A stretch of 64,000 nt of DNA. Source: Raja brachyura (lineage: Eukaryota). Shown here one piece after another: positions 1,733-55,628 of the stretch. Position numbers and translations under genes: made by a program. The notes beneath the pieces were generated by a model. That model was not told where the DNA came from. It ran no database searches and saw only the letters and a program-made list of their open reading frames with translations. Numbering within the stretch: position 1 is the stretch's first letter; each line of letters begins with the position of its first letter. The DNA lies in assembly GCA_963514005.1 (NCBI GenBank), contig OY740808.1, positions 12,586,001 through 12,650,000 of the forward strand, written 5' to 3'.

Positions 1733-2055
1733 TTACAGACAGCTGGACCTGGCGATGTTTCGCTGCAGCGGGCAAGCCCGCGACTCGTGTTTAACCACAC
1801 AGGAGTAAAGCTCGTGTGAGTTCCAGACTGTGACTGGCAGAGTCAGGTAACTGCTCGCACTGAACGTGCTGTCCGCCTCCTGTTGGACTGGGCTGGTTTC
1901 GACGCCATCACTTCTCGCACTGCCGTCCACAGTCCACTCAATTTCCACAACTCCCGGATTAAACCCACTCACCAAACACACAAGGGTGGCGGTTCCCTTT
2001 CCCGTCATTTCTTCCGCTGAAGGTCCAAAGACGGACACCGCGGGCGGCTGAGGTA
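1733..2055 (-). CDS. IGL: Ig lambda-type light chain copy 1, constant exon (IPQPPAVSVFGPS...ATLVCLVSGFNPG...YSCVVKHE...RSSCL*)
   Basis: Acceptor attAG at 2057-2056. C1-set motifs ATLVCLV, W and YSCxVxH, and a penultimate Cys for H-L linkage. Resembles elasmobranch type II/lambda C regions as I recall them. Confidence 0.95.
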
Positions 2056-3242
2056 CTAATCAAAAATAAAGTCACAGATTAGTAGGGCTAGCAGAACTGC
2101 TTCGGTTAAAACATCTTTGTTAAAAATACAGTTGGTATAGCATGGATTCATTCGTTCCAAGTGAGATCTCCAAAAATAACTGCTAGTTATGGCAATGGGA
2201 CAGAATATACGCAGTAGCGTAAAATATATTATTTCGGCAGTGTTTTTATTTGATCTCCAGAGTATTATTTCCATTGGCTCCAGTTACAAAAAAAAACGAG
2301 TGTTTTACCTGACAGCCAGTTGCGGGTTTTCATTGCAGTCAATGTTCCACTAAACTCGCTTCAAACTTTAGTTTTGTTTAAGTACCTTCCCTTAATTCAT
2401 CTGTTCATTTATTAAGACCAGATACCGAAATGTTACTAATGGTTGGATTTTAGCGTCAAGAATATTTTGCCGTTTTAGCCATCGATTAATTTCCAGCAAC
2501 GTTAAATTTACCGTGTTCTCGCGTTTTAAATAGTCGTTGATATGATTTACATTAATGCTGAAACGTATGTGTTTGATTTTCCTTGACCCGTCTCTTCTCT
2601 TTGAAGTAATAATTCAGCTCAGATTTCTGAAGTTGAATAGCGAATCTTATTCCTTTCGCTTAATGGCACAACAGCAAAATGCATTATAAGATGTCACACG
2701 GAACTAAACTGATTTGAAGAAGGGACCCGAACCGAAAGTCACCTATCCATGTTCACCAGAGATGCTGCCCTACCCGCTGAGTCACTCCAGAGCTTTCTGT
2801 CTTTTTTTATAAACCAGCATCTGCAGTTCCTTGCCCCTGCAAAGTTATTTCCCGTGTCCTTACGTTCGGTCCAATTCTTCTCCAGGTTTGATAATTGTTA
2901 TCCCGCCGTCCACAAAGTAATTAAGAATAATAAAACAGCTGGACATTCGATTCGTCCTTTCATTCCTGTTGTCAACTAATTTGCCAAAAAGACTCGATCG
3001 TGGCCGGGAATTAAAAAAACACCAGTTTTAAATATCTTTAATTTCAGCTATTTAGTGTAAAAAATACAAACAGTCGGCCGAGAATCAGGCCCTTTGACAG
3101 AGCTACGTCTCATAATTTGCCAAAGGAAACTCGACTTTGGTCGAACGCTGAAAATTAGCGTTAAAATGTTTTCTTTGAACCATCGATTAGCGACAGAAAA
3201 CCAATTACTTTTCACTGCAATATCATTAACCCAAAGATAGAA

Positions 3243-3408
3243 TATGCAGGAAGGAACTACAGACCCATTCATACCCTCCAGAGATGCTGCCAATCCAGCT
3301 TGTTGTGTCTATCTTCGGTTTAAACCAACCTGCAGTAACTTCCTCATAACTCTGTAATTCTCCAGAGATGATGCATGGCCCGCTGCGTCACTCCAGCTTT
3401 TTGTGTCT
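3243..3408 (+). mobile_element. Short repeat insertion in the J-C intron with a 14-bp flanking direct repeat (present in all three copies)
   Basis: acccaaagatagaa at 3229-3242 and 3409-3422 flanks two ccagagatgctgc modules. Confidence 0.7.
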
Positions 3409-3436
3409 ACCCAAAGATAGAAGGTATTTTACTTAC

Positions 3437-3781
3437 TGCCAATACCCAGCCTAGTTCCTTTGCCGTAGACGAAAGCATCGTTCCACACAGCACAATAGTA
3501 ATCCGCTGCGTCCCCCGACTGCACGTTTGATATTGTCAATGTTGCAGTGTTGCCTGACACTGATCCGGAGAAACGTCTAGAAACTCCCGAGCCTCTGGAA
3601 ATGCTGCTGCCCGAGTAATAGTAGATCAAATACCGCGGAACCGTTCCTGGAATCTGCTGGTACCAGGAAATCTCTCTGTTACCTAAACTGCCGCCAGACA
3701 GGGTACAGGGTATTTCCACGTTCTGTCCCAGAAATGTGGATTTTGAAGCCGGCTGATTTAGTGCAAATTGCGTATTTATAT
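3437..3781 (-). CDS. IGL: Ig lambda-type light chain copy 1, germline-joined VJ exon (YINTQFALNQPASKSTFLGQNVEIPC...WYQQ...DAADYYCAVWNDAFVYGKGTRLGIG)
   Basis: Acceptor ttttccAG at 3783-3782. V-set hallmarks C-W-DxAxYYC run directly into a J-like xGKGTRL. Donor GTAAGT at 3436-3431. 345 nt, open frame, no RSS. Confidence 0.95.
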
Positions 3782-3905
3782 CTGGAAAACAAACCAGAAA
3801 AAGGAGAATATTAACTAATATCAGAGAAACAGCAGATTTGTCATGGATAGAAATGTTTAATCGTACTCGAGATTAAACACCATGTCGGTTGAAGTCAATA
3901 CTCAC

Positions 3906-3954
3906 AAGCTGCGGAAAACGCTAACGCATAGACTAGAGAGATCCAGCAAGACAT
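3906..3954 (-). CDS. IGL: Ig light chain copy 1, leader exon (MSCWISLVYALAFSAA, phase-1 intron)
   Basis: ATG at 3954-3952 followed by 16 hydrophobic codons plus 1 nt, then donor GTGAGT (plus-strand actcac 3900-3905). Splices in frame to the VJ exon. Confidence 0.92.
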
Positions 3955-8420: not shown

Positions 8421-9200
8421 TGAAAGAGGTGTGTCCAGGTGCAGCTCCTGAAAGATTAGTGATCTGCAGTTGCAATTGGATGACCTCATGTTCGTCCAGA
8501 GAGTGAGCAAGTCATAGTTAGGCATCATAGTGAGGTGCTCACGCCTGTGGTGCGGACAAAGAATAGATGGGTAACCACCAGCAAAGGCAGTAGGCAGAAG
8601 GTTCAGGAATCCCCTGTCGGCTTTCCCCTGCAAAACAGCTATGTTCTTTTGCAACTGTTGAAGGGGTAAGATTGATGCCTATAAATAATCTCATCATCTG
8701 TCATTTGTTTTGTAATCAAATGCCCAAGATATTTTACCTTATTACAGACACTAAGATTATTGTCGGACAATTTAAAATCAGGACATTTTAGACATTTAAC
8801 CTCTTTGGTTCTTCAGATCATAACAGCACTCTTACAAGCATTATATTTAATATCATGTTCCACACCATACAAAAAACATATAGTAAGGAGCTGCAGGAGA
8901 CCAGCGCTAGATGGGCTAAAGACCACATGGTCATCTGCAAACATAATATGGTTCACTAAAATATTACCAATGATGCACCCAGTATTACAGGCTTTCAATT
9001 GCTTGGACAGATCATCCATATAAATATTAAAACGGACTGGGGACAAAATTCCCCCTTGTCTAACACCATTGCTAACTCCAAAAGGGGGTGAGACCCTATT
9101 GCCCCATTTTATTTGCATAGTCTGGTGGGCATACCAGGAAACCATAATTCCCACAATGTATATAGGCACCCCTCTTTGACTCAATTTAACAAACAGCTTT

Positions 9201-19351: not shown

Positions 19352-19530
19352 GGGGCGGCACAGTGGCGCACCTGGTAGAGCAGCTGCCTCGACAGCGCCA
19401 GAGACCAGGGTTCGATCCTGAGCTTCGGGTCGCTGTCTGTGAGGAGTTTACACATTCTCCCCGTGATGTCGTGGGCTGCCTCTCAAATCCCAAAGATTAT
19501 AGGTTCATAGGTTAATTGGCCTCTGTAAAA
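19352..19530 (+). mobile_element. HE1/V-SINE-like tRNA-derived SINE (paralogs about 810-945, 36073-37081 interrupted, 54900-55100, 62876-62990)
   Basis: Box A tggcgcacctggtagag and box B ggttcgatcc, followed by the core gctgtctgtgaggagtttacacattctccccgtg...taggttaattggcctctgtaaaattg. Confidence 0.8.
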
Positions 19531-20092
19531 TAGCTTGGAATTGCTAAGTGAATAGTATTAGCAAGGTCACATATAACGATTACTGTCTGTCCTCCAATGC
19601 GTTTCTACATGAGCGCGCCATTTTGTTCGTGTGTTCGACTATTTATAATCACACCAGTTTATAACATAACGTTCGGCGCCATTTATCACCGGTTCTCCCA
19701 TAAGGTAAAATAATGAAGGTTGATTAGATACATTTGATTTTCTCTGATCAGAAATAAAAATCCAACAAATGTATCGCTCTTAAGATTGAATTATTGATTT
19801 TAGTCGAGAGTTGTATTTGAAAATGTTAGTAACGTGGGTAAGCAAAACAAACCTGAATGTAATCTTTAAACCACTGTATTTTAATGAATATTTGGGAATG
19901 CATTTAACAGATTGAATAACATTGGAGTTTCAATTCACAACGAGTTGCTTCGATGGAATGACGTTTGCAAACGTCGAGACAAAGGACAATTTCAACGTAA
20001 ATGCTAGTCGATAACAGATAATATTTTTATATCAATTTTTGACAAATGAAAGACGGAGCACAAATATTTTTCAGCTTTGGAATCTAGAAGTT

Positions 20093-20415
20093 TTACTGAC
20101 AACCGGACCTGGCTATGTTTCCATGCACCGGGCTTGCCCGCGACTCGTGTTTAACCACACAGGAATAAAGCTCGTGTGAGTTCCAGACTGTGAGTGGCAG
20201 AGTCAGGTAACTGCTCGCACTGAACGTGTTGTCCGCCTCTTGTTGGATCCGGCTGGTTTCAACGCCATCACTTCTCGCACTGCCGTCCACAGTCCAGTCG
20301 ATGTCCACAGCACCCGGATTAAACCCGTTCACCAAACACACAAGGGTGGCGGTTCCCTTTCCCGTCATTTCTTGTGCTGAAGGTCCAAGGACGGACACCG
20401 CGGGTGGCTGAGGTT
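20093..20415 (-). CDS. IGL: Ig lambda-type light chain copy 2, constant exon (KPQPPAVSVLGPS...RSGCQ*)
   Basis: Acceptor aatAG at 20417-20416. 323 nt, C1-set motifs, stop TAA at 20095-20093. Confidence 0.95.
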
Positions 20416-21805
20416 CTATTTAAAATAAAGTCACAGATTAGTAGGGCTAGCAGAACTGCTTTGGTTAAAACATTAACTTTGTTAAAAATACAGTTGGTAA
20501 AGCATGGGTTCATTCGTTTCAAGAGAGATCCCCCCATAATAACTGCTATTTATGGCAATGGGACAGAATATGGGGCAGCAGCGTAAAATATATCATTTCG
20601 GAAGTGTTTTTAATTGATCTCCAGAGTATTATTCCCATTGGCTTCAGCTAAAGGGTTTTTGTACACGACAGCCAGTTGCGGGTTTTCATTGCAGCGAAAG
20701 TTCCACTAAACTCGCTTAAAACTTTAGTTTTCTTTAAATACCTTCCCTTAATTAATCTGTTCATTTATTAAGGCCAGATACCGAAATATTACTAATGGTT
20801 GGATTTTAACGATAAGAATATTTTGCCGTTTTAACCATCGATGAACAGACTAGATTTGCAGCTACGTTAAATTGACCGTTTTCTCGCATTTTAAATAGTC
20901 GTTGATATGATTAATGCTGACACGTATATGTTTGTTTTTTTCTCGACCCGTCTCTTCTCTTTGAAGTAATAATTCTGCTCAGATTTCTGAAGTTTGAATA
21001 GCAAATCTTACTCCTTTCGCTTAATGGCACAACAGCAAAATGCATTATAAGATGTCACACGGAACTAAACTGATTTGAAGATGGGACCCATACCGAAACC
21101 TACCTATCCATGTTCACCAGAGATGCTGCCCTACCCGCTGAGTCACTCCAGACCTTTGTGTCTTTTTTTGTAAACCAGCATCTGCAGTTCCTTGTCCTTC
21201 TAAAGTTATTTCCCGTTCCCTTATGTTCCGTCTAATTCTTATCCAGGTTTGATAAATGTTAGCTCGCCGTCCGCAAAGTAATTAAGAATAATAAAACAGC
21301 TGGACAGCCGTTTCGTCCTTTCATTGCTGTTGTCAACTAATTTGCCAAAAAAGACTCGATCGTGGCCGGGAATTAAAAAAAATATCAGCTATAAATACCT
21401 TTTATTTTAGTTATTTAGTGTAAAAATTACAAACAGCCGGCCTAAAAGCTGGGCCCTTTGATAGAGCTACGTCTAATGATTTGCCAAAGGAAACTCGACT
21501 TTGGTCGAACGCTGAACATAGTAGCGTTAAAAGCTTTTTCTTTGAACCATCGATTAGCGAAAGAAAACCAATTACTTTTCACTGCTATATCATTAACCCA
21601 AAGATAGAATATGCAGAAGGAACTGCAGACCCATTCATTCCGTCCAGAGATGCTGCCTATGCAGTTTGTTGTGTCGACCTTCGGTTTAAACCAACTTCTG
21701 CAGTTCCTTCCTCCAATCCTTTCCTTATCTCCAGAGATGCTGCCTGGCTCGCTGCGGTACACCAGCTTTTTGTGTCTACCCAAAGATAGAAGGTATTTTA
21801 CTTAC

Positions 21806-22150
21806 TGCCAATACCCAGCCTCGTTCCTTTGCCGAAAATGAAAGCATCTTTCCACACAGCACAGTAGTAATCCGCTGCGTCCCCCGACTGCACATTCGAT
21901 ATTGTCAATGTTGCAGTGTTGCCTGACACTGATCCGGAGAAACGTTCAGAAACTCCCGAGCCTCTGTAAATGCTGCTACCCGACCAATAGTAGAACAAAT
22001 ACCGCGGAACCGTTCCTGGAATCTGCTGGTACCAGGAAACGTCGCTACTACCTAAACTGCCGCCAGACAGGGTACAGGTTATTTCCACGTTTTGTCCCAG
22101 AGATGTGGATTTTGAAGACGGCTGATTCATTGCAAATTGCGCATTTATAT
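21806..22150 (-). CDS. IGL: Ig lambda-type light chain copy 2, germline-joined VJ exon (...YYCAVWKDAFIFGKGTRLGIG)
   Basis: Acceptor AG at 22152-22151, donor GTAAGT at 21805-21800. 345 nt open frame with canonical FGKG. Confidence 0.95.
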
Positions 22151-22270
22151 CTGAAAAACAAAATAGAAAAAACGTAGAATATTAACTAATATCAGAGAAA
22201 TAGTAGAAATAATAGAAAGGTGTAATCGTACTCGAGATTAAATATCATTTCGGTTGAAGTAAATACTCAC

Positions 22271-22319
22271 AAGCTGCGGAAAACGCTAACGCATAGACCA
22301 GAGAGATCCAGCAAGACAT
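22271..22319 (-). CDS. IGL: Ig light chain copy 2, leader exon
   Basis: ATG at 22319-22317, 49 nt, donor GTGAGT at 22270-22265. Same protein sequence as the copy 1 leader. Confidence 0.92.
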
Positions 22320-24358
22320 TGTAATTAATTGAGCGGAGAACGCCAGGTGAAGTGGCTTCTCAGTGTTTCTCTCCGGGTCGCTTATGAACCGTTTGACAAG
22401 TCGTCACCGCGAGTTCCTTATCTATCCATCAACAGTCAAATCAGAATGCTTGTTGCGCCAATCAGAAGTTGCCAGATTCTTCCTGCGTCAAATTATTTCC
22501 AAGGTAAATAACGATTTGGTGTCGAGTCTCTCGGTACAATTTATCTCGGTACATTTATATCTCGGTACAATTTGATATAGACTCAAGCACATGAGACTTT
22601 GTTTCGTTTGAAAGGAGGTTGAATTCTTCCTTTTCATTTATTCTGAATCTTTTGCTGTGCAGTTGCACGGCATGCGCCTTCAAATAAATTAATCCAATAA
22701 CCTCATCATAATTCCTGGCGACTGTTCATTCACTCTTGAAAAATGAATGGATACATTCCAACAGTGGCTGAAGAATCCGATCGCATGGTCTCGCACTACT
22801 GTGCGTCATGCACCTTCACCCTTTTGGTTGCACACCCACATTTTATTTGAAACTGGTAAATATTTTGGTGAAGATCGTGTGGAGGTAATCGTTCAAAGCG
22901 CAATGTGAAGAAGCAATTGTCTGAAAAAATATTTACGAATTTGAAAATGTGGGTGTCAATGCACCGTCAAAACCGCTGTAATCCTGGAATGCATGCTTGC
23001 TAGCAGTACACATGTTCACTGGCTTAGCACGGGTAATTGACTTAATTGAGAAAACAATTGAGAAACATGTTTAATCGACCAAGGAGTTGCTGGCGAGTTT
23101 TATATATTAAAGACGTCGATGTCCGCACGTGCTTGCTTTGCTATGATATTAATTCTGTCCAACTTCATCTGATATATGAAATTATATTTACATGCAACCA
23201 GCGTTGCCTTATACTTGATCTAATGTACGCAGATTTTATATCGCAACCCAATCGCGCTGGTTGTCGCGGCAGCGCTCCTTTCACTTTGTGGATTATGCCT
23301 GCAGGGTATTAACACCAGGCGAATCAGTGCTAACGACTATGAACAAGAAAATACAGTTAAAAACACGTTTACATTTTCAAAATGTTGACATTTGGACTAA
23401 CGATTTCGCTGGTAATTGATCAAAGGAGACCGGGCTGTTCTGCTGATGTGCCTGGACAGTTAATACTCGCATCTCATAAAAGTCCTCAGAGCGATGACAT
23501 GCAAACAGGTCAAGCAAAGGCATCAATGTCTCAAATATTGTTTCCGAAATTGTTCTACTCCTCGGTACTTTGGAAATGCTATCTCTGTTGGAACAGCGGA
23601 ATCCTTCCTATGATACCGTGTTATGATTATGCATAATTTAACGGGCATTAACAATATTTTAGTTGAAATGATGACATAAGAATATGTTTCAGTGCGCAAC
23701 CATGACACCCGTACCTAGCCTATTACCAATGTGCGTTGCCTTTGCTAAGTTATCCTCTGATCTCTCCACATGAACGCTTTACAGAAACTGGATACATTGA
23801 ACAATTCCCCATGCAGGTAAAACAAAAGCACGTAGTTCAACTACATCCAGCAGAAAGTAATCCGCTCTTTGATACTTTTCTCACTCTAAATATTCATCCC
23901 CTGCCAAGTAACAATATATTGCCACGACCCTCTTGGCAATACGCAAAATACATTACAATTATGTCCAGGACACACGGACAACACCTCCGTGCCTAATCAG
24001 GATAAGAGGAAAGGGTGTGCATAGGAGCACCTCTCTTGCTAGACAAGCCACAGCCGAAGTTGAGTACGAAATACATTGCTATGCTTTGCGATTGTTGGGC
24101 CCAATTCTTGGAAATCCCTGTCTAAAGCAGGATTTGGGTCCTATCGCCAGAATACTTCAGTGGTTCAAGAAGCTTAACAGTGCATACTAATGCTCACCTT
24201 GCTGTCAAATTTGATTAAAATTTGGCGTATTGATGGAACTTTTGGTTTGGGAAACAAAAGCAGATGACAGGGTAGTAGAGCTGTGCTACTCGTCTTGTTG
24301 GAGTTTTGCAGAATATTATTTCTGCATGATCCATAGTGTAACTCTACGCGCGAGCATT

Positions 24359-24487: not shown

Positions 24488-27400
24488 ACAGTCTCAAAAT
24501 ATTAACATTTGTAATGAAATGTTGAACAGAACGGGGTGGTGACGTTCAATGAGATGCGACTGTGAGATGCTGGAATCTTCAGTGAAACGCACAATGCTGG
24601 AGGAGATGGTCTCGTAAGGACATTTCGGATCGCGAACCTTCTTTAGACTCTGGAAAAGGGTCCCCACCAAAACATAACATAGCCATGCACTCCAAAGGTG
24701 CTGCGCGATCTGCTGAATTACTCTAGCAATGAAGTAGAGGTTCATCACATTAACAAATTAATGGAAGTGAAGTATTAAAGCAATCTAGATATTCTCTAAA
24801 ATAAATAAGATTAGGTATTTAAATAGAGTTTTATCGTTTTACGCAGGGAAGATGGACATTGCATAGAAGCCACAGCTGAAGAATAACGGGGTTAATGACT
24901 CACAAACATTCACTTCCGTGTGGAATGTTTCATGTAGGCGAAGTGCGCTTCCAAATTGCTCGGTTGCAGCAAAACTGCATACATTGTGGTGACTCAGCGA
25001 GAGGTAGCATTACCAGGGCAGACTGGTCGAGAAGCAATCTGTTCCCGCCGGTTAGCCCGGAGATTATGTAACAGTGCAATTTCAGGTAAAGATGAAAGGC
25101 CAGAAGACTATGATCCTTAATACGTCAAATATAGGGATGTGATGTGCACACTGTAATCGTTAAGGACAACCTTCTCTGGAATTATTGCCGTCCTTTTGGC
25201 GAAGATATAGCTCCAACCCACTAGGAATACCATTCCAGAATGTACTTCTTACAATGTTATTGAAATCGACTTTCTTGCAATCCAGAAACCTAACTTCGGG
25301 ACTAGTCTTACCCCTTCCTATGAATACCCAAACATAAGGGTAAAATGCTATGGTTTCGGACCCTCAAAATATCAGATCACTGATGCTTCATCCTCTTACC
25401 CGGCTTCATTTATTTGTCAGTGGGTCCAGCATTGGCACAGAAAGCACTCCTATATAGTATTTTATCTACCACGCCTATTCCTTTCACAGGCCTGTGATCA
25501 CAAATGATATTAGAGGTATTTGGTGAAGGGGTATTAGAAGTATTTCTTTAACGTGTACTGTCCAAAGAAGGAAAATGATGCATGTATTAGAGGTCATATG
25601 CTATCGTGAAACGAGGGCTAGCTATCATGAAACAGAGTGTAGGCAGAATTGGGTCTGGTTTTGATTTGTAAGGAGTACCACTGTCGTGTTGCGAGTAAGG
25701 TTGTGCGCCCTCAAACTCAGCTTCGGTTTCCTTACAATATATTTGAATTTCATATGATCTGATCTCTGATGTAGCATACACAGTCATATTCCTTTATTTA
25801 TACCATTGATTGTTCTGTTGGTTGTTTTACTTTTTGCCACAGAGAATTCGACCATCCCTTCAGTTGTTTTCCACATTATCACTATAGTCCAGAATATATT
25901 TCTTTTCAGAGTTATGCTTATCTGAATATTGGTTCATCTTCTCAGTCGAGAAATACCTCTATCGTTATTTGCGGGCAAGTGTCGCAGCTTGGTTATTTGG
26001 CTAAATAACAGTCAATAAAATGAAGGTAAAATAACAGGCATTAAAATGATGGCAAACGTAAGTGGAGCGGCCATAGTAAGTTTGGTTTATTGAGGCTTAA
26101 GCTCAAGAGGCTTCAGTGAGGGTTACCTTCGGATAAGATTTAGTCTGCCACTTTATGTTTGCTTTGCAGCACAACCTGGTCTTGGTGTCATAGAGATGGT
26201 GGCTAGTGTGCTCAACCTGTGGGATGTTGGAACTGAAGCAGATGTAGTGTCTCTGAACATTACATCTGCAGGATGTGTGTCCAGGTGCATGTCCTGAAAG
26301 ATTAGTGATCTTCAGTTGCAATTGGATGACCTCGTGTTCGTCCAGAGAGTGAGCAAGTTATAGTGAGGAGTCATACTGATGTGCTCATACCTGTGGTGCG
26401 GCCAAAGAATAGATGGGTGACCACCATCAAAGGGAATAGGCAGAGGGTTCAGGAATCCTCCGTAGGTATTCCCCTGCAAAACTGCTATATTCTTTTGCAA
26501 CTGTTCAGAACAATATTACATAAAAAAACATTGCATATTAAAACACCATGAAATACATGTAAAATCTTAGTATATCACTTATAAAAGCATCACAAATTAT
26601 ATATTAAAAACAACACAATACATGATTTTAAATCCAGAATAAAAAGATCAATGTCCCACAACGAGACAGCGATACCAGTGTCTCCACAACTTGGATTCGT
26701 AGCGTGTAGTGCGAAACCCTATGTTTGACAAGGCCACGATAATTACATTAGTAGACTCATCTATCCTGCCACTGAATGTATACCTATGATTTCTTAGGAT
26801 AGTTTCTAAAGTACTGACTCCTGCAGCCACAGAAATGTTACTAGCACGCCACCATCTAGGTTTCCTTAGTGGTGTTCTCATGGCATTATCATGGGCCGCT
26901 TTTAGTCTCTGCAAACTTCTCTTTCCGTCGCTCGACCACAGGTGTGCAGTATAGAGTGGTGTGCAATATGCCCTAAAAGCAGGGACATCCTCACCACATC
27001 TGCACACGCACCAAACTTACGCAAGAGAATATTCGCCTGCACATACAGCATAGTCGTTGCCTATAAATATCCTCATCATCTGTCATTTGTTCTGTAATAA
27101 AATGCCCAAGATATTTTACCTTATTATAGACATTGAGATTATTGTCAGACAATTTATAATCAAGAAATGTTAGACATTTATCCACTTTGGTTCTATAGAT
27201 CATAACAGCACTCTTACAAGCATTATAATTAATATCATGTTCCACACGATACTCAGAACATATGGTAAGGAGCTGCTGGAGACCAGTGCTAGATGGACTA
27301 AAGACCACAAGATCGTCTGCATATATAATATGGTTCACTAAAATATTACCAATCATGCACCCAGTATTACAGGCTTTCAATTGCTTGGACAGATAATCAA

Positions 27401-36961: not shown

Positions 36962-37877
36962 TACACATTCTCCCCGTGATGTCGTGTGTTGTCTCCCACA
37001 TCCCAAAGATTGCGGGTTCATAGGTTAATTGGCCTCTGTAAAATTGCCCCCCCCCCCACTGTGTAGGGAGTGGATGAGAAGGTAGGCTGCACTTATCAGT
37101 CGTTTCTCGCAGCGTGCACTTATCCAACTAATCAGCTCAGCAGGAACCAACCCAGAACTTCAGTAGCTCTATTAGGCGAGAACAATAAAACTACATATGA
37201 TACTCCATGTGTGCTAGCCCCCTATATAAAGGCAGAAAGACCATATTACTCTCACTCCCCACCAGCCCCGCCCATTTAATTCACAGATGAAATAGCTTGG
37301 AATTGCTAAGTGAATAGTATCAGCAAGGTCACATATAACGATTACTGTCTGTCCTCGAATGCGTTTCTACATGAGCGCGCCATTTTGTTCGTGTGTGTGC
37401 GTGTGCCTACATGAACCAATTTATAATCACACCAGTTTATAAAATAACGTTCGGCGCCATTTATCACCGGTTCTTCCATAAGGTAAAATAATGAAGGTTG
37501 ATTAAATATGTTTGATTTTCTCTGATCAGAAATAAAAACCCAACAAATGTATTGCTCTTAAGATTGAATTATTGATTTTAGTCGAGAATTGTATTTGAAA
37601 ATGTTAGTAATGTGGGTATGCAAAACAAACCTGAATGTAATCTTTAGACCACTGTCTTTTAATGAATATTTGGTAATGCATTTAACAGATTGAATAACAT
37701 TGGAGTTTCAATTCACAACGAGTTGCTTCGATGGAATGACGTTTGCAAACAGCGAGACAAAGGACAATTTTAACGCAAATGCTAGTCGATAACAGAGAAT
37801 ATTTTTATATCAATTTTTGACAAATGAAAGACGGAGCACAAATATTTTTCAGCTTGATTAGTTGGAATCTAGAAGTT

Positions 37878-38200
37878 TTACTGACAGCCGGACCTGGCGA
37901 TGTTTCCATGCACCGGGCTTGCCAGCGACTCGTGTTTAACCACACAGGAGTAAAGCTCGTGTGAGTTCCAGACTGTGACTGGCAGAGTCAGGTAACTGCT
38001 CGCACTGAACATGTTGTCCGCCTCCTGTTGGATCCGGCTGGTTTCAACGCCATCACTTCTCGCACTGCCGTCCACAGTCCAGTCGATGTCTACAGCACCC
38101 GGATTAAACCCGTTCACCAAACACACAAGGGTGGCGGTTCCCTTTCCCGTCATTTCTTGTGCTGAAGGTCCAAGGACGGACACCGCGGGCGGCTGAGGTT
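37878..38200 (-). CDS. IGL: Ig lambda-type light chain copy 3, constant exon
   Basis: Acceptor AG at 38202-38201. 323 nt, intact C1-set domain, ends RSGCQ*. Confidence 0.95.
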
Positions 38201-39602
38201 CTATTTAAAATAAAGTCACGGATTAGTAGGGCTAGCAGACCTAATTTGGTTAAAACATTATTAGTTGTTAAAAATACAGTTGGTAAAGCATGGATTAATT
38301 CGTTTCAAGTGAGATCCCCTCATAATAACTGCTATTTATGGCAATGGGACAGAATATGGGGCAGCAGCGTAAAATATATTATTTCGGAAGTGTTTTTAAT
38401 TGATCTCCAGAGTATTATGCCCATTGGCTTCAGCTACAATATTAAAGAGTGTTTTTTTACACGACAGCCAGTTGCGGGATTTCATTGCAGCGAAAGTTCC
38501 ACTAAACGCGCTTAAAACTTTAGTTTTCTATAAATACCTTCCCTTAATTAATCTGTTCATTTATTAAGGCCAGATACCGAAATATTACTAATGGTTGGAT
38601 TTTAACGATAAGAATCTTTTGTCGTTTTAGCCATCGATGAACAGACTAGATTTGCAGCTACGTTAAATTGACCGTTTTCTCGCATTTTAAATAGTCGTTG
38701 ATATGATTAATGCTGACACGTATATGTTTGTTTTTTTCTCGACCCGTCTCTTCTCTTTGAAGTAATAATTCTGCTCAGATTTCTGAAGTTTGAATAGCAA
38801 ATCTTACTCCTTTCGCTTAATGGCACAACAGCAAAATGCGTTATAAGATGTCACACGGAACTAAACTGATTTGAAGATGGGACCCATACCCAAACCTACC
38901 TATCCACGTTCACCAGAGATGCTGCCCTACCCGCTGAGTCACTCCAGAGCTTTGTGTCTTTTTTTGTAAACCTGCATCTGCAGTTCCTTGTCCCTCTAAA
39001 GTTATTTCCCGTTCCCTTACGTTCCGTCTAATTCTTATCCAGGTTTGATAAATGTTAGCCCGCTGTCCGCAAAGTAATTAAGAATAATAAAACAGCTGGA
39101 CAGCCGTATCGTCCTTTCATTGCTGTTGTCAACTAATTTGCCAAAAAAGACTCGATCGTGGCCGGGAATTTAAAAAAATATCAGCTCTAAATACCTTTTA
39201 TTTTAGTTATTTAGTGTAAAAATTACAAAGAGCCGGCCTAACATCTGGGCCCTTTGATAGAGCTACGTCTAATAATTTGCCAAAGGAAACTCGACTTTGG
39301 TCGAATGCTGAACATATTAGCGTTAAAAGCTTTTTCTTTGAACCATCGATTAGCGACAGAAAAGCAATTGCTGTTCATTGCAATATCATTAACCCAAAGC
39401 TAGAATATGCAGGAAGGAACTGCAGACTCATTCATTCCGTCCAGAGATACCGCCTATCCAGCTTATTGTGTCTCTCTTCGTTTTAAACCAACATCTGCAG
39501 TTCCTTCCTCCAACCCTTTCCTTCTCTGCAGAGATGCTGCCTGTCTCGCTGCGTTACGCCAGCTTTTTGTTTCTACCCAAAGATAGAAAGTATTTTACTT
39601 AC

Positions 39603-39947
39603 TGCCAATACCCAGCCTCGTTCCTTTGCCGAGGATGAAAGCATCTTTCCACACAGCACAGTAGTAATCCGCTGCGTCCCCCGACTGCACGTTCGATATT
39701 GTCAATGTTGCAGTGTTGCCTGACACTGATCCGGAGAAACGTTCAGAAACTCCCGAGCCTCTGTTAATGCTGCTACCCGAGTAATAGTAGAACAAATACC
39801 GCGGAACCGTATCTGGAATCTGCTGGTACCAGGAAACGACGCTACTACCTAAACTGCCGCCAGACAGCGTACAGGTTATTTCCACGTTTTGTCCCAGAGA
39901 TGTGGATTTTGAAGACGGCTGATTCATTGCAATTTGCGCATTTATAT
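39603..39947 (-). CDS. IGL: Ig lambda-type light chain copy 3, germline-joined VJ exon (...YYCAVWKDAFILGKGTRLGIG)
   Basis: Acceptor AG at 39949-39948, donor GTAAGT at 39602-39597. 345 nt open frame; J motif reads LGKG. Confidence 0.95.
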
Positions 39948-40073
39948 CTGAAAAACAAAATAGAAAAAACGTAGAATATTAACTAATATCAGTGAAACAG
40001 AAGAAATATCACGGATAGAAAGGTTTAATCGTACTCGAGGTTAAATATCATTTCGGTTGAAGTAAATACTCAC

Positions 40074-40122
40074 AAGCTGCGGAAAACGCTAACGCATAGA
40101 CTAGAGAGATCCAGCAAGACAT
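40074..40122 (-). CDS. IGL: Ig light chain copy 3, leader exon
   Basis: ATG at 40122-40120, 49 nt, donor GTGAGT at 40073-40068. Confidence 0.92.
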
Positions 40123-41855
40123 TGTAATTAATTGAGCGGAGAACGCCAGGTGAAGTGGTTTCTCAGTGTTTCTCTCCGTGTCGCTTATGAACCGTTTGAC
40201 AAGTCGTCAGCGCGAGTTCCTTATCTATCCTTCAACAGTCAAATCGGAATGCGTGTTGCGCCAATCAGAATTTGCCAGATGCTTCCTGTGTCAAATTATT
40301 TCCAAGGTAAATAAGGATTTAGTGTCGAATATCTCGGTACAATTTATCTCGGAACATTTTACTATAGACTCAGGCACATAAGATACTTTGTTTCGATTGA
40401 AAGGAGGTGTTGAATTATTCCTTTTCATTTATTCTGAATATTCATGCGCCTTCAAAGAAATTAATCGAATAACCTCATCATAATTCCTGGCGACTGTTCA
40501 TTCACTCTTGAAAAATGAAGGGATGCATTCCAACAGGGCTGAAGAATCCGATCTCATGGTCTCGCACTACTGTGCGCGTCATGTACCTTCACCCTTTTAG
40601 TTGCACACTAACATTTTATTTGAAACTGGTAAATATTCTGGTGAAGATCGTGTGGAGGAAATCTTTCAAAACGCAATGTGAAGAAGCAATAGCCTGCAAA
40701 ATTATTTACGAATGTGCAAATTTCGGCGTCAATGCACCGTCAAAACAGCTGTAATTCTGGAAAGCATGCTTGCTAGCAGCACACATGTTCACTGGCTTAG
40801 CACGGGCAATTGACAATTGATAAAAAAAAATTGAGAAACATGTTTAATCGACCAAGGAGTTGCTGGCGAGTTTTATATATTAAAGACGTCGATGTCTGCA
40901 CGTGCTTGCATTGCTATGATAGTAATTCTGTCCAACTTCATCTGATATATGACATTATATTTACATCCAAGCAGCGTTGCCTTATACTAGGTCTAATGTA
41001 CGGAGATTTTATATCGCAACCCAATCGCGCTAGTTGTCGCGGCAGCGCTCCTTTCGCTTTTTGGATTTTCCCTGCAGGGTAGTAACACCAGGTGAATCAG
41101 TGCAACGGCTATGAACAAGAAAATACAGTGAAAAAAAGTCTACATTTTCAAAATTTTTCCATTTGGACTAACGATTTCGTTGGTAATTAATCAAAGGAGA
41201 CCGGACTGTTCTGCTGATGTGCCTGGACAGTTAATACTCGCATCTCATAAGCAAAAGCATCAATGTCTCAAACATTGTTTCCGAAATTGTTCTACTCCTC
41301 GGTACTTCGGAAATGCTGTTTCTGTTGGAACAGCACAATCATTCCTGTGATGCCGTGGCACGATTATACACCATTTAACTGGCATTAACAACATTTTAGT
41401 TGAAATGATGACATAAGAATATGTTTCAGTGCGCAACCATGACACCCGTACCTAGCCTATTACCAATGTGCGTTGCCTTTGCTAAGTTATCATATGATCT
41501 CTCCACATGAACGCCTTACATAAAGTTTGCATAAAGTTGATACATCGGACAATTCCCAATGCAGGTAAATCAACAATCAAGTAGTTGAACTACATCCAGA
41601 AGAAAGTAATCCGCTCTTTGATACTTTTCACACTCTAAATATTCATCCCCTCCCAAGTAACAATATATTGCGCCGACTCTCTTGGCAATACGCAAAATGC
41701 ATTATAATTATGCCTAGGACACACGGACAACACATCCGTGCCTAATCAGAATAAGAGCAAAGGGTGTGCATAGGAGCACCTCTCTTGCTGGACAAGTTAC
41801 AGCCGATGTTGAGTGCGAAATACATTGCTATGCTTTGCGATTGTTGGGTCCATTT

Positions 41856-46411: not shown

Positions 46412-46487
<76 letters not shown>

Positions 46488-46954
46488 CTTTATTTCGGAC
46501 TCAAGGGACAACATTACATAAAAATACATTGCATATTAAAACACCATAAAATACATGTAAAATCTTAGTATATCTATATATTACTAAAAGTAAGATCTTG
46601 GCCGCTTTTGACGCACTACAATTTGATTTCCGAGAGAACGCCGCCGATTACGGTCGTCATTTTTGGTCACCTCGCTCTGAGCCTCCATCGGCCGGACTGA
46701 ACCAGAGGATTTTCCCTATCGATAAAACAATCAGAGATATATTAATGTTTATAAAACATATTGCCATTCTCTCTGCTTCCCCTGATGGTGGGAGGGGGGA
46801 GGGACTATAAAACCCGGAAGTTGTGTGACTCACTCAGTCTCTGCAAGATGGAAGCATCCAGAGGGTCACGTCTCTCTGGGCTCAGAATAGCACTGAACAC
46901 ATTTCTACTCAAGTGTGAGTGCCCTTAATGTGGTTTGAAAATGAAAATATGGTT

Positions 46955-47265
46955 GGTTTGAAGTAAGAAGGCACTGCAAATGGTTGTTTGGGGGTTTTGG
47001 GTTGAAGTAAAAAGGCACTGCATGCAAATGGTTGTTTTGGGGGGTTGGGTTGAAGTAAAAAGGCACTGCACGCAAATGGTTGTTTTGGGGGGTTGGGTTG
47101 AAGTAAAAAGGCACTGCATGCAAATGGTTGTTTGGGGGGTTTGGGTTGAAATAAAAAGGCACTGCATGCAAATGGTTGTTTGGGGGTATGGGTTGAAGTG
47201 AAAAGGCACTGCAAAGGGTTGCTTGGGGGTTTTGGGTTTATGTGAAAAGGCACTGCAGATGGTTG
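46955..47265. repeat. About 48-bp minisatellite inside the Helitron
   Basis: Repeats of ggttgaagtaaaaaggcactgcatgcaaatggttgttttgggggg. Confidence 0.9.
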
Positions 47266-47604
47266 TTTGTCTAAACTTGACAACTTCCTGTTTCCACTAT
47301 ATTGATTTTGGATAAAACATTTACATCTGTGATTTTTGGCCATCTTACTCAGTGCCTCACTGCTCATCAGGTGTAGAGGATTCTCCCATCAATGAAAAAC
47401 AAAAGTGTCAATCACGCCATGAAGGCCACACCTTTTCCGGTGGGAGGGGGAGAGATTATAAAACCCGGAAGTGTGGGTGTGGCTCAGTCTCTGCATGATG
47501 GGGAGGGAGACGTCGCGACTCTGTCTGAGCTGTGAATCAACTGAACACACTGAATGTTTACTGAACTGTGAGTGTGGTGTTTTGTGTGGTTTCATGGTGA
47601 TTTT

Positions 47605-48010
47605 TATGGTGGTCTCACCCTGCTTGAAATACTATGGAACTGTACTTGAATGTGGTGGCCTTGCACCCTGCATGAAATGGTATAAAACTGCATTTGAATG
47701 TGCAGTCGTTGCACCCTGCATGAAATGGTATGAAACTGCATTTGAATTTGGTGGCCTTGCACCCTCCTTGAAGTGTTATGAAACTGCACTTGAATTTGGT
47801 GGCCTTGTACCCTGCTTGAAGTGGTAGGAAACTGAACCTGAATTTGGTTGCCTTGCACCCTGCTTGAAGTGGTATGAAACTGCACTTGAATTTTGTGGCC
47901 TTGCACCCTGCTCGTAGAGGTAAGAAACTGCACTTCAATTTGGTGCTCTTGCTTGAAATGGTAGGAAAATGGATTTGAATTTGGTGGCCTTGCACTCTGC
48001 TTGAAATGGA
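47605..48010. repeat. Degenerate roughly 48-bp minisatellite inside the Helitron
   Basis: Repeats of ggtggccttgcaccctgcttgaaatggtatgaaactgcacttgaattt. Confidence 0.85.
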
Positions 48011-51000
48011 ATTTCAAGGAATAGCCGTGAGTCAACTACCAGCCCACCAGTCATGAGTTATCTGTCAGCACGTCAGGCTTGAGGTACTGAGCTGCCACCC
48101 CAAGAATCCATTTAGCCCACAATGTCCATACTAGCCCTCTGGGGACCAGTAGTCTCTGCAGCCAACAACACCCATCCCAGTGCTCCAGAAAGCACCCCCC
48201 CCCCCCACTGGCCATCAATATTGGAATTGGTAGAGAGGTGGAATATTGCGCTGGGGGACCAGCCCTCCCGTGTGAACATGGGATCCAACGGGTCCCACTT
48301 AGTCTAGTCACTTATAAGAGCATCATAAATTATATTTTAAAAAACACAATACATGATTTAAAATCCAGAATAAAAAGACCAATGCCCTACAACGAGATAG
48401 CGATACCAGTGTATCCACAAGTAGGATTCATATCATGTAGTGCTAAACCTTACGTTTGACAAAGCCACGATAATAACATTTTTAGAGTCATTTATCCGGC
48501 CAATGAATTTATACATATGATTTCTTAGGATAGCTTCTAATGTAGTGACTCTTGCAGCCATAAACATCTTATTAGCACGACGCCATCTAGGTTTCCTTAG
48601 CACTGTTCTCATGGCATTATCATAGGCCACCTTTAGTCTCTGCAAACTTGCCTTTCCATAGTTCAACCACAGGTGTGCAGTATAGAGTGGTGTGCAATAT
48701 GCTCTAAGCAGCTACATCTTCACCACATCTGCACACGCACCGAACGTACGCAAGAGAATATTCACCTGTACATACAGCTTAGTGGTTGCCTAACGATATC
48801 CTCATCTTCTGTCATTTGTTCTGTAATAAAATGCCCAAGATATTTTACCTTATTACAGACACTAAGGTGATTGTCAGACAACTTATAATCAGGAAATTTT
48901 AGACATTTATCCTCTTTGGTTCTACAGATCATAACAACAGTCTTACAAGCATTATACTAAATATCATGTTCCACACCATACACAGAACATATAGTAAGGA
49001 GCTGCTGGAGACCAGCGCTAGATGAGCTAATGACCACAAGATCATCTGCATACATAACATGATTCACGTAAATATTTCCAATCATGCACCCAGTATTATA
49101 TGCTTTCAATTGCTTGGACAGATCATCAATATAAAGATTAAAACGGAATGGGGACAAAATTTCCCCTTGTCTAACACCATTGGCAACTCCAAAAGGGGGT
49201 GAGACACTATTGCCCCATTTTATTTGCATAATCTGGTGCGCATAACAGTAAACCAGCATTCTCACAATCTATTTAGGCACCCCTCTTTGATGCATTTTAA
49301 CAAACAGCTTTCTATGAATAACCCAATCAAAGGCTTTGGAAGCATTAATAAAGCACTTACTAATTGAAGAGTTTTTGCCTCTATATTTGTTTACAATCTC
49401 CTTTAGGTCAAAAATGCACAAGTCAGTGCCATGTTTAGCTTTAAAATCAAACTTTCTATCTGTGGAGCTAACAAACTCATTTACTCTATCCAGCAGAATT
49501 ATATCTAAGTCTTTTGACAATATGCTGGCTAAAGCTATGGGCCTGTAATTATTTCGGCAGCCTACTTTACCAGCTTAGTCCTTAATGACCAGCACTAGCA
49601 GAACAGACAATATTGAGGCTGGTAACAAAGAATCATAAAGCCAGTAAAGCAAATAGCAAGTAAAGGAGCTATCCTTATACTCACATACTTAAGATGTTCA
49701 GCAGAAATATGATCCAAGCCACTTGCTTTGTTGTTGGACAGCTTGTTCATGACATGATACACCTCATGTGACACAATCATCACCGAGTCATTACTCTCAA
49801 TATTGTCCACCCTATACAAATCACCTTGGACGCAGTTGTATAAAGTGCTATAATGTTGTCATAAAGTTCCATAATGTTGCCATAACTCCGCGTTATTAGC
49901 TATTCCAGAGATTCCATCTATGCTGCATGGAAGAGATGTTTTGCAACTGTTAAGAGCTCTCACGTCTTTCCAAAAATCAGTATCATTGTTACTTAGCAGC
50001 TTCTTAGCCATGGAATCAGCCGTCATTGATTGCTAATTTTTTACAGTTGAAGCGAACAGCATACCAATATCTTGTATTAGTGAACTTATTTTACTCAAAC
50101 AGATATGTAGGAAACTGGATGAGGTCCGAGAGAAGAATAAAACAAGTTGGGAAAAAAGTTAGGAAAAGGGATGGGGTCCTCTAGAGAGAATATAGAGAGT
50201 TCAGCAAAATATAACAAAGAGCAATGAGATCCTCCGGAGTGTATATGAGGAGTTAGTTAAACGGTTAAAATTACCACCTGCTGGGTGGTAATCTCTAGAT
50301 TACTACAGTTGCCACGTTAGTGAGGGTAGCAATAGGAGGATAGGACAGATGAAAGCATAGCTGAGGAGTTGATGCAGGAGAAAGGATTTGGACTGTAGAC
50401 CATAGTGATGTTTATTGCCGCAAAGGCGACATGCACAAGAGGGACAGGTTGCATTTGAACTGAAGGGACACCAACATCCTTGCAGTGAAGTTTGCTCGTG
50501 AGAATTTAAGCTAAAATGGAGGGAGAATGGGAATGAAAGGAGCAAGTTTGCGAATGGAAAGGCTGATGAGAAAGTGGAGGTAATAACAAGTAAGTCTCAA
50601 AGGAAGGATGGGCAGGGAGTGGTTCATGATTTATGGGTATTGTGGATAAAGCTAAATGAACGTTGATGGTCGAGATCAGTGCTTGGAATAATAATGTTGT
50701 GGCCATTATGAAATCTTGGTTGTGGGAGAGACATGACTGACAGTTCAATGCATCAGGGCTTTGATATTTGAGATGGTTGTGCTTAAAAATAATAAAGGAA
50801 TGGTTTCTCCAATGGGATTATATTACGGGACACCCAATAATCAGCGGAAGCTGGATTGGATATGTAAACAGACGCATGAACTAAAGTGTTGTTTTAGTGG
50901 GTATCGATAACTTCCCCAATATTCACTGTTTTATGTTCAGTGAAAGGGTGTTAGATGAGGCAGAATTTATGAAGTATATCCAAGAAATTTGCCTTAAACG

Positions 51001-54000
51001 GCGTATGGATAGTCTGAATCCAGGAGGGACGATACTGGTCATTATGTTGGGAAATGAGCTTGGCCAGGTGACTGGTGGTATGCTGGAAGAGCACTTGGGG
51101 ATAGTGACCACACGTTTAGAAGGTTGGTTTGGATAAGGATTGGTCTGGATGTTCACAGAAGCAAAACAGATTAAAATGTCAGTAGGCAGGAACTTGGGAG
51201 CAGTTGTTCTTGAGTATGTCCACAGCTAACATATGGGAGTTATTTAACCAAAGTACATAATCAGCATGTTCCAGTAAGGAGGTTTGATAACGATTGCAAT
51301 GACCACGGAGATTATAAACGTTTTCAGAAACAAAACGGAAACGTACGTCAGATTTAACAAAGTGGCAGTAGCAAAGAGCTCAACCAGGTGATTAGTAGGG
51401 CCAAACCTGTCATGAAATGTAATTGATGAGTTGGGTTAAGGAAAATCCTGCAACTTTTTATACGTATGTTAAAAACAAGAAGGGTGCCAAGAGATACGGC
51501 AGGTCTGATCAAGGATAATGGATGTAGCGGAATTGTTAAGCGAGTTTGTCTGCATCTGTATTCACCAAGTAGAAAGACGTGGATGACCGTGAGATCCGTA
51601 TGGAGAATACAAATATGCTAGGCCACATATGCTGGGGCTTGAGATCGAAAAGAGCGGCAGTGAGGGGCTTGAGGAACATTGAGTTGTATAGGTCCCCTGC
51701 ACCCGTTGGTATCTATCCCAGTTTATTGAGGGAGGGGAGAGGTGATTCCAGTGGTCCTGACAAGAATCCTTGTTGCTTCTCTAGCCGCAGACGAGCACCA
51801 AGAGGACTGGAAAATGAGCAGTTCCCCGTTCCTGGCAGAGAATTCCACAGACTACAACTCTCTGTGTGAAAAAGTGTTTCCTCATATCCGTTCTAAATAG
51901 CTTACCCCTTGTTCTTGTATTGTGGCCCCTTCTTCTGGACCCCCCCCCCCCCCCCCCCCCCAACGTCGGAAACATGTTGCCTGCCTCTGGCGTGTCCAAA
52001 CCCTTAATAATCTTATATGGTTCAATAAACAGTGAAGATTAAATTGGCATTGGCCTGGCATACAGGGAGACCCCGACCAATTTGGATGAAAAGCTTTGGT
52101 CGGACAAATCCATGGCAATTTGCAGGTCAAATAAGATTTCGGAGTTTCTGAAGAAAATATTGCATTTTGGCGAATAGCCGAGAAAGACTGTATGAATGTT
52201 ATCTTTAAAATATGACGAATGGGGAATGGGCAAAGATTTTCTGTAGTTAGTGAAATATAGTATATTGAGTTGGACAGATATTTATGGTTAAATAAAACAC
52301 TAAATCGTCGAATATCTCGAGGGGTCACGCAGCATCTGACCTAAACATCGCCTCTCTATTTATTTCACAATTGCTACCTAACCCGCCGAGTATTCCAGCA
52401 GCTTGTGAATCCAGCATATGTGGTTCTCTTTGCTTTAATTGGTACTCCTTAACTACGTTTGAGTAGCCGAATCACTGACTTAATAGGGTGACTCAGAAGA
52501 ATGAGAGAAATTAGGACTGTTGTACGCAATTATAGGCAATTCGTGATGAGCTATTAATCTAGCCGAGGTTTCTGGTGATGAAGGACATTGTTAGCGAGGA
52601 CATTTATGACTGGTGCGTTTAAGCACTAAAAACATGAATGAGCATTTATTGTGCGGAACGAGAGCATTGTTCGTGCATAAATGGCAGTGATAGCAATGTA
52701 GATAACTGGAGCACCTGCTGCTGTTCAGAAGGACTTGAAATTGCAGGCTGTCAGTCCAATTTGAAGACAGGATGAGGCGAAAACAGCTTGCAGTATAGAG
52801 ATACAGAGGTGCACCAACTGGTTTTCGCCTGCTATAGGGAGAAAAAAGATTTGGTTCATAATTCATTAATTAGATAGGTGTAAAACAATGCAGAGCCAAG
52901 TCAATATCATTTATGGACTTCTGGACAGGAATTTGCATCTGGGGGTTTGGTGTCAAGGACAACACCTAACTACGGAATAGATGGACTCAGTTTTGCCTTC
53001 AGAGCTCACAAAATAATGAGATATTAGAAAGGGAGTTAATTGCTGCGATATTATTGATATTATCGGAGAATCCAAAAGGAATCAAGCGAAGGCCTTGCAT
53101 GCAGTTGAACATTATAGGAGGGGCTTGTCGAGAGGCAAACCCCATTGAGATCTAGTAGTTCTGAGTCACGGTCATGGTCACAAAATTCATTTCTGAGTTT
53201 GTTTGTTTGTGGTTTATTATTATTGTCACGTGTGTCCATTTTGCCAAATTCAAACCGGGAACATAAGAAGAAGGAATAAGTAAGTTGTTTCAGGCTTTAC
53301 CGGGTGTCCCGGGTTGAACGCCATTGAAACTCAAGTGTCACACCCTTTTCCCAACTCCCTTGAATCGCTTAAAGTTCTTCCGATATCAATCTGTTTGAGT
53401 ATCGGCAAGCATATGGAGTAAAGTGTCCAAAACATTAGAATCGCATCCAGCCAAAAATACTTTTCTTTTCAGTCCTGATTACCCAACCCATTATCTGAAG
53501 ATGAAATCAGGCAGAAATATAAAATCGAGTTAGAAATCACTTAAGCGGTCAATTAGAAGAGCCAAAAGGGGGCATGATACGGTTTTGTCGAGCTAGATTA
53601 AAGATCGCAAGGCTTTTTATACCTAAATTAAATGCAAGAGGGTAACCAGAAAGATGGTAACTCGAGGATAACGGGAAGAATTTCTGCTCTGTGTCAAAGG
53701 ATATAGGCTAGGTATTAAATGAGTATGTTGTATGTATTTTCATCAAGGAGAAGGACAAGGAGGAGAGTGAGATCTATGTGGCGAATATTCATATGCAAGG
53801 GCACTGTGTGATTAAGTAGGTGTTGGGTGTCTTGAGGGGCAGTGTGCATGAATGGACAGATTATTGAGAGACACGAAAGACGAGTTTGCAGTAGCCATGA
53901 GAAAGATCTCTGCACCTTCTCTAGCAGTTAATACGTTTACAGATGACAGCTAGATTGTTGAGGTTGCGGACAGTGAGGAAAGCTGTCAAAGTATACAGCA

Positions 54001-55628
54001 GGATAGAGACTAGGTATAAAAATGAGAGATGAAATGATAGATGCAGATTAACCAGAGCATTGACGTGGTGGGGGTGGCGTCGATTGTAAGGGGAAATATA
54101 CGAGATTAATAACAACAGTATTGATGTACAGAGGAATTTTGGGAACCAAGTCTATGTCTCCCTCAGTGGCAACACTACTATATTGAGTGGTCAAAAAGCA
54201 TATTTATGTTTTCCTTCATTGGGCAGGGCATTCAGGATAAGGGCAGGCGAGACATGATGCTACTTTTAGGACTTTTGTTAGGATGCATTTCGTGTACTGT
54301 CATCATTTCCTGTCGCCCCAATACTAGATGGAAGTGGAGGCCTTGGAAAAGGCGCAGAGGATGTTTACCAGCATGATACCTGAATTAGGGGTATTAGCTA
54401 CGAGCAGAGGTTGGACAGAATTGGGTTGTTTTATCTGTAACCGTTGACGATGAGGGGAGGCCTGCTAGAAATATATAAAATTTTGAGAATCATAGATAGG
54501 GCAGAGAATCATTACCATTTCCCCTCAGAATGGAAATATTAAGGGCTAGATGACATAGCTTCAAGGTGAGAGACGCATGGACATTTTATATACAGAGGTT
54601 GGTGAGGACCCGGAAGGCGTTGGCGAGGTGGTGGTCGTGGCACAGGCAACAGTGGCATTTGTAAGACTTCTGGATACGGATCCTGTGCACGCAGGTAATA
54701 TTTGGTTTTGGCATCACCTCGGCAAATAAATGGAGTGCCGAAAGGCTTGTTCGTGTGCTGTGCTGTATATGTTCTGCGCGTTGGGGATACTGCAAACTTT
54801 AGTTTGCACTCATCAACCAGGAGAAATAACGTCTGCACCTTTTCCTGCCAAGACCACTAAGTTTTATATATTACAGTGGCTGATACATTGTATATAGTGG
54901 AGCGGCACAGTGGCGCACCTGGTAAAGCAGCTGGCTCGACAGCACCAGAGACCAGGGTTCGATCCTGAGCTCGGATGCTGTCTGTGAGGAGTTTACACAT
55001 TCTCCACGTGAAGTCGTGGGTTGCCTCCCACATCCCAAAGATTGCGGGTTCATAGGTTAATTGGCCTCTGTAAAATTGCCCCACACTGTGTTGGGGGAGG
55101 TACTAGGCTACACTTCTCAGTCGTTCCTCACAGCGTGCACTTATCCCGCTAATCAGCTCAGCAGGAACCTACCAAGAACTTCAGTAACTCAATTAGGTGA
55201 GGAAAGTAAAACTATATGTGATACTCCATTTGTGCTAGCGCCCTATATAAATGCAGAAAGACCATATTACTCTCGCTCACCACCAGCCCCGCCCATTTAA
55301 TGCACAGATGAAATAGCATGGAACTGCTAAGTGAATAGTATTAGCAAGGTCACGTATGACGATTAACGTCTGTCCTCGAATGCGTTTCTACATGAGCGCG
55401 CCATTTTGTTTGTGTGTGTGCGTGTGCGCGCGCGCGACTATATGAACCAATTTATAATCACACCAGTTTATAACATAACGTTCGGCAGCATTTATCACCG
55501 GTTCTTCCATAAGGTAAAATATTGGAGGTTGATTGAATACATTTGATTTTCTCTGATCAGAAATACAAATCCAACAAATGTTTTGCTCTTAAGATTGAAT
55601 TATTGATTTTAGTCGAGAGTTGTATTTG

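Follow-up and report, generated by a model that had tools for sequence, protein, structure and literature searches.

An octamer-bearing minisatellite in a non-autonomous Helitron upstream of one germline-joined immunoglobulin light-chain gene in Raja brachyura

The window, by which we mean the whole stretch of 64,000 nucleotides analysed here, consists of three tandem units of ~18 kb each, every one carrying the leader, germline-joined VJ and C exons of an immunoglobulin (Ig) light-chain gene. V and J share a single exon with no intervening segment, and copies 1 to 4 each yield an open 238-amino-acid frame. The three copies most relevant below are as follows:

1733-3954, minus strand: Ig light-chain copy 1, open 238-aa frame
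20093-22319, minus strand: Ig light-chain copy 2, open 238-aa frame
37878-40122, minus strand: Ig light-chain copy 3 with leader, germline-joined VJ and C, 238-aa frame

Beyond the window the array continues, and over 444 kb it comprises 19 V genes, of which two are broken; a second cluster of seven related genes lies ~0.6 Mb away. In a tree that included no named elasmobranch reference, the window genes group with this second cluster on C30, whereas the clusters on C29/C47 and C32 fall elsewhere, and several of the named PDB hits of the window light chains are lambda-type. From the tree, these hits and sequence motifs we infer that the genes probably encode lambda-type (type II) light chains of a skate-like cartilaginous fish; a type I/sigma-cart identity was dropped after the clusters had been grouped in the tree. 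The FGxG motif of J reads LGKG in copy 3 (39598-39933; F to L) and YGKG in copy 1 (3432-3767), in frames that are otherwise open. Between the upstream region of copy 3 and copy 4, a partial unit remnant (53515-55628) corresponds to the region 3' of the C exon, and no Ig exons were found in it. Units 2 and 3 differ by 5.3% in their gene regions (19528-24106 and 37290-41855), compared with 8.8-11% pairwise in the flanks, which suggests constraint or gene conversion.

Upstream of copy 3 lies a 1,735-bp element on the plus strand, which starts with 5'-TC, ends in CTAG-3' and is flanked by A (46572) and T (48308). Inspection of these A/T junctions (the slash marks the boundary) revealed no target-site duplication, and no ORF was found within the element. 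In unit 2, a precise empty A/T site is preserved at 26574/26575, upstream of copy 2; the region of the target site is deleted in unit 1, and unit 4 has no counterpart of it. The element is a non-autonomous Helitron of the TC/CTAG type. Both the original prediction of a Helitron and its claim that the insertion is confined to copy 3 thus hold, with one of 19 light-chain copies carrying it, and it is the only full copy of the element within the 444 kb that contain the 19 V genes. Its parts and surroundings are as follows:

46573-48307, plus strand: Helitron copy with TC/CTAG ends, an A/T target and ends common to RepHel-bearing elements
46573-46940, plus strand: 5' terminal region, by likeness to transposase-bearing Helitrons
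46787-46920, plus strand: promoter-like module A, by motif matches and conserved cores
46826-46832, plus strand: AP-1-type TGACTCA, a private variant of the family's TGCCTCA
46953-47257, plus strand: minisatellite A, by tandem-repeat analysis
47439-47573, plus strand: promoter-like module B, which duplicates module A within the element
47616-48009, plus strand: minisatellite B, no octamer, 48-bp period, 8.4 copies
48279-48307, plus strand: 3' end with a predicted stem-loop (48279-48297) and CTAG (48304-48307)
46414-49574, minus strand: decayed LINE-like host repeat, by ORF fragments, interrupted by the Helitron
26574-26575, no strand: empty A/T target site upstream of copy 2, in the paralogous unit

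Relatives of the element end in CTAG/T and share its ends in differing flanks, and thus form a dispersed multi-copy family. The Helitron Rep family PF14214 has 96 matches in the genome; ten of these loci were compared, and five match an element end strongly. An 8.6-kb element on C925 combines both Helitron ends with a degraded, PF14214-bearing RepHel frame in the same orientation, and the 5' terminal region of the copy-3 Helitron is 75-80% shared with transposase-bearing Helitrons. At the 3' end, an 8-bp stem-loop is predicted, the stem of which ends 10 nt before the terminus; at -5.2 kcal/mol (z -0.44) it is no stronger than in shuffled sequences. At C4:315,900-331,000, plus-strand Helitron ends enclose a minus-strand RepHel region, which could reflect an internal inversion or an assembly artefact. 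Helitrons of the Helibat1/Helraiser type are described in PMC4778049 with 5'-TC and CTAG-3' ends, a short 3' palindrome and a RepHel partner. The copy-3 Helitron has the same kind of ends and a RepHel partner in common with them, and a short palindrome is predicted near its 3' end; unlike them, it has no ORF and carries a duplicated promoter-like module and a minisatellite. The likeness to the bat elements described here is one of features.

The original prediction had placed TATAAAA-C-CCGGAAGT twice in the element, at 46806-46821 and 47457-47472, and TGACTCA at 46826-46832, and all three are present. In module A, a G-rich box (46787-46798) is followed by TATAAAA (46806-46812), the ETS-type CCGGAAGT (46814-46821), an Inr-like TCAGTCT (46834-46840), the A of which lies 30 nt past the TATA start, and a donor-like GTGAGT (46915-46920). 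Module B repeats this order with TATAAAA at 47457-47463, CCGGAAGT at 47465-47472, TCAGTCT at 47484-47490 (a TATA-to-Inr spacing of 29 nt) and GTGAGT at 47568-47573. The Inr and donor labels denote matches to consensus sequences, and the sites are predicted ones. The two modules are 74% identical, and the motif occurs twice because this ~135-bp module was duplicated inside the element. The 16-mer TATAAAA-C-CCGGAAGT has 3,315 exact matches in the genome against two for a reversed control, and from 22 16-mer matches in 29 sampled copies we roughly estimate a family of ~4,400 copies. The module also sits at the 5' end of transposase- or RepHel-bearing relatives, and its G-box, TATAAAA, CCGGAAG and TCAGTCTCTGC cores are nearly invariant when modules A and B are compared with each other and with three Rep-locus relatives, of which two represent ends of RepHel-bearing elements. 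From this we infer that the module is the element's own 5' promoter, with an activity that is predicted. The TATA modules are plus-strand features, opposite to the minus-strand Ig genes, and therefore point away from copy 3. The AP-1-type site is different in kind: its TGACTCA is a private C-to-A change found in one of the 24 copies matched at this position, 22 of which have TGCCTCA. The caveat of the original prediction that its motifs might simply be the family consensus is therefore right for the TATA/ETS module, which occurs family-wide, and for the octamers treated below, which belong to one repeat variant of the family; the AP-1 site is private to this copy.

Could the element act on its surroundings through these promoters? 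Both modules might drive plus-strand transcription that leaves copy 3 behind and runs antisense in the direction of copy 4, 15.5 kb away, or a methylated insertion might dampen copy 3. The canonical spacing between TATA and Inr, the donor-like site in both modules and the conservation of the cores between the modules and autonomous relatives speak for such an activity. A precedent is HelibatN3 of Myotis, which according to PMC4778049 is a promoter-plus-donor cassette comprising the NUBPL promoter, a short exon and a splice donor. Like it, the copy-3 Helitron is non-autonomous, and a donor-like site comes after its promoter-like region; unlike in HelibatN3, its predicted promoter module is common to transposase-bearing relatives. 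We consider an effect by this route very unlikely, given that the same module is borne by the thousands of copies of the family and that CpG decay (see below) points to methylation.

The octamers themselves are where they had been reported. Exact copies of ATGCAAAT occur at 47022-47029, 47118-47125 and 47166-47173 and a decayed ACGCAAAT at 47070-47077; with the ATG of copy 3 at 40122, the first octamer is 6,900 bp away, as claimed, and the three exact ones lie 6.9-7.0 kb upstream of the gene. They belong to minisatellite A, which has a period of 48 and 6.5 copies, made of three 44-bp-type and four 48-bp units. In 64 kb of random DNA 3.5 octamers are expected, and three within 150 bp exceed chance; the three octamers are nevertheless copies of one tandem-repeat unit. 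Of the predicted "phased array", the 48-bp period stands and helical phasing is rejected: 48 bp correspond to 4.57 helical turns, so that the sites are periodic only. Three forms of the unit exist genome-wide, namely CACTGC-AAAT of 44 bp (468 exact matches), CACTGC-CTGC-AAAT of 48 bp without an octamer (385) and CACTGC-ATGC-AAAT of 48 bp with an octamer, the rarest (251). The octamers are thus found in one of three 44/48-bp variants, and therefore 48 bp is just the repeat length; indeed, the same period is found in units without an octamer. An origin solely from a TGCA slip in the 44-bp unit was modified as an explanation after the non-octamer 48-bp variant was found.

The genome contains 192 octamer pairs spaced by 48 bp, and among the first 100 listed, 98 are this minisatellite. 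Exact triples (at least three consecutive octamers) number 69 at 34 loci, all of them other than the copy-3 Helitron, which has no exact consecutive triple, and other family copies carry up to ten octamers. A family tree was built from those 34 of 50 copies in which the 5' and middle parts are sufficiently represented. A branch with a local support of 0.90 sets apart all copies with octamer arrays, together with several octamer-free copies; the octamer variant is therefore likely older than the copy-3 insertion. Per-position conservation of the octamer showed no excess in a weak test, in which 44-bp and non-octamer 48-bp units were mixed in and the choice of loci was biased. Multi-kilobase runs of the minisatellite or of tandem elements at C1:154.20-154.21 Mb and C1:83.76-83.78 Mb resemble satellite growth from the Helitron family. 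Minisatellite Helitrons are described from frogs, zebrafish and flies (Heli2Xen, Helitron-N2_XT, Helitron-N1_DR, DINE/HINE) in PMC12001565. They share with the copy-3 Helitron internal minisatellite arrays of variable copy number; unlike them, it has 44/48-bp units that include a variant spelling the POU octamer. A literature search that reached the minority of subscription journals yielded no Helitron minisatellite that spells an octamer.

Single octamers are also present elsewhere in the window, at 9111, 10127 and 35193, in agreement with a caveat of the original prediction. The host repeat that the Helitron interrupts, which has an (ATA)n tail at 46414-46486 and which is presumably a LINE, as judged from reverse-transcriptase motifs in its ORF fragments, has an octamer of its own at 49222. 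This is paralogous to those at 9111 and 27493, and the three are positioned 9.1, 5.2 and 5.2 kb upstream of copies 3, 1 and 2, respectively; copy 3 is thus not alone in having a distal octamer.

At the genes themselves, the 1 kb preceding the V exon is free of exact octamers in copies 1-4, just as had been stated for the proximal promoters. Across the window cluster (C30:12.54-12.93 Mb) an exact promoter octamer was found in one of 19 genes, two further promoters have a one-mismatch site near the octamer position, and in two others an exact site is found at -952. By comparison, the octamer is present in all seven promoters of the sister cluster (C30:11.87-11.99 Mb), between -277 and -287 relative to the V match. 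Most promoters of the window cluster carry a conserved TCTGATTGG (CCAAT-type) box instead; the promoter region of copy 3 is at 40122-40330. The joined NS4 genes of the nurse shark retain the octamer (PMC2193156).

An enhancer effect of the array on copy 3 is conceivable because 18 of the 19 promoters lack an exact octamer, so that a distal supply could matter. Oct2/OCA-B would then act from three intact octamers on an octamer-less promoter 6.9 kb off and bias expression among the pre-joined copies. The restriction of the insertion to copy 3 and the gain of a private AP-1 site fit this proposal, and in mammals octamers are known to function both at Ig promoters and at distal enhancers such as the mouse Igh 3' enhancer (PMC13043367). 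For catfish, PMC1800861 describes an IgH enhancer (Emu3') whose core contains two variant octamers, and a trimer of the octamer served as a reporter in that study. These enhancers and the copy-3 array have in common several octamers distant from an Ig promoter; the former are tested elements with partner sites, whereas the latter is repeat cargo known from its sequence.

Are octamer arrays of this family preferentially located at Ig genes? Enrichment of the family near Ig loci had been put forward as a check, and none was found: the 34 triple-octamer loci all lie outside the mapped Ig loci, and the 420 kb surrounding 20 other light-chain V genes are devoid of octamer arrays. Two other family pieces occur near those V genes, where 1.4 would be expected for the 0.864 Mb examined in total (P=0.41). 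One of the two, at ~20.084 Mb of C32, lies ~6.5 kb upstream of a light-chain V gene, with the promoter module facing the gene and a non-octamer 48-bp unit. An octamer-pair array at most 10 kb upstream of any light-chain V gene is uncommon by chance, with ~0.012 expected, or ~0.09 for 3 Mb of Ig loci, which counts against a passenger insertion; these expectations rest on a rough estimate of 83 octamer-pair array loci and on a site picked post hoc.

The state of the copy-3 Helitron is that of an ordinary family member. It differs by 6.7% from the family majority, compared with a median of 5.3% over 34 copies, and the flanks of units 2 and 3 have diverged to the extent given above. Insertion and duplication are therefore of about the same age, with the insertion probably coming shortly after. 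Among 25 scorable CpGs, six are now TG or CA, which is the tenth-lowest decay of the 34 copies and, across copies, in line with a methylated Helitron family. The CpGs of both ETS sites are intact and one of the four octamers is mutated. No sign of selection was seen in the divergence against the 34 copies or in the octamer decay, a comparison of low power based on few sites. As to polymorphism and age across species, both flanks of the insertion are high-copy repeats. Contigs that join 46572 to 48308 appeared in four of four runs; unit 2 or other high-copy copies of the host repeat could give rise to them, and they were therefore not counted. One 55-nt contig, from a sample that may be the source itself, spans the left junction by 28 letters on one side and 27 on the other, below the 31-letter rule.

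For an enhancer at copy 3, the intact ETS CpGs and a CpG decay in the lower third are favourable, and sequence decay cannot exclude activity in the absence of selection. Weighing against it are the stronger arrays at 34 loci outside mapped Ig loci, the lack of enrichment and of any extra conservation, the loss of one octamer and the F-to-L change in the J motif, which does not suggest a favoured copy. Overall, we regard the enhancer as unlikely. The more far-reaching idea that a Helitron subfamily turned its minisatellite into an octamer multimer, scattered ~80 such arrays, and at copy 3 provided an Oct2/OCA-B enhancer that replaces the missing promoter octamer and helps to set the expressed light chain appears quite improbable to us.

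In summary, we favour with a probability of about 0.8 that the element is a copy of an abundant non-autonomous Helitron, a passenger insertion the motifs of which are family cargo and which likely does not regulate copy 3. In this passenger scenario, slippage by 4 bp, a single C/A change or both would have created the octamer in the minisatellite unit of one subfamily. This would have preceded the insertion at copy 3, and tandem expansion would have multiplied the octamer-bearing unit. The TATA-ETS-Inr module would be the 5' promoter of the element, duplicated internally and facing away from copy 3. The Helitron probably inserted at the A/T site soon after units 2 and 3 had duplicated and has since decayed like its methylated sister copies.

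As it stands, the finding is an ordinary one, a minisatellite- and promoter-bearing Helitron next to an Ig gene, of a kind described in bats and frogs. If the array did act as an enhancer, units 2 and 3, one without and one with the insertion, would offer a natural comparison for studying how a B cell selects one of several light-chain genes that are joined in the germline and so do not have to rearrange. The large-scale loss of the promoter octamer in one lambda-type cluster and its retention in the sister cluster may be a better lead than the Helitron.
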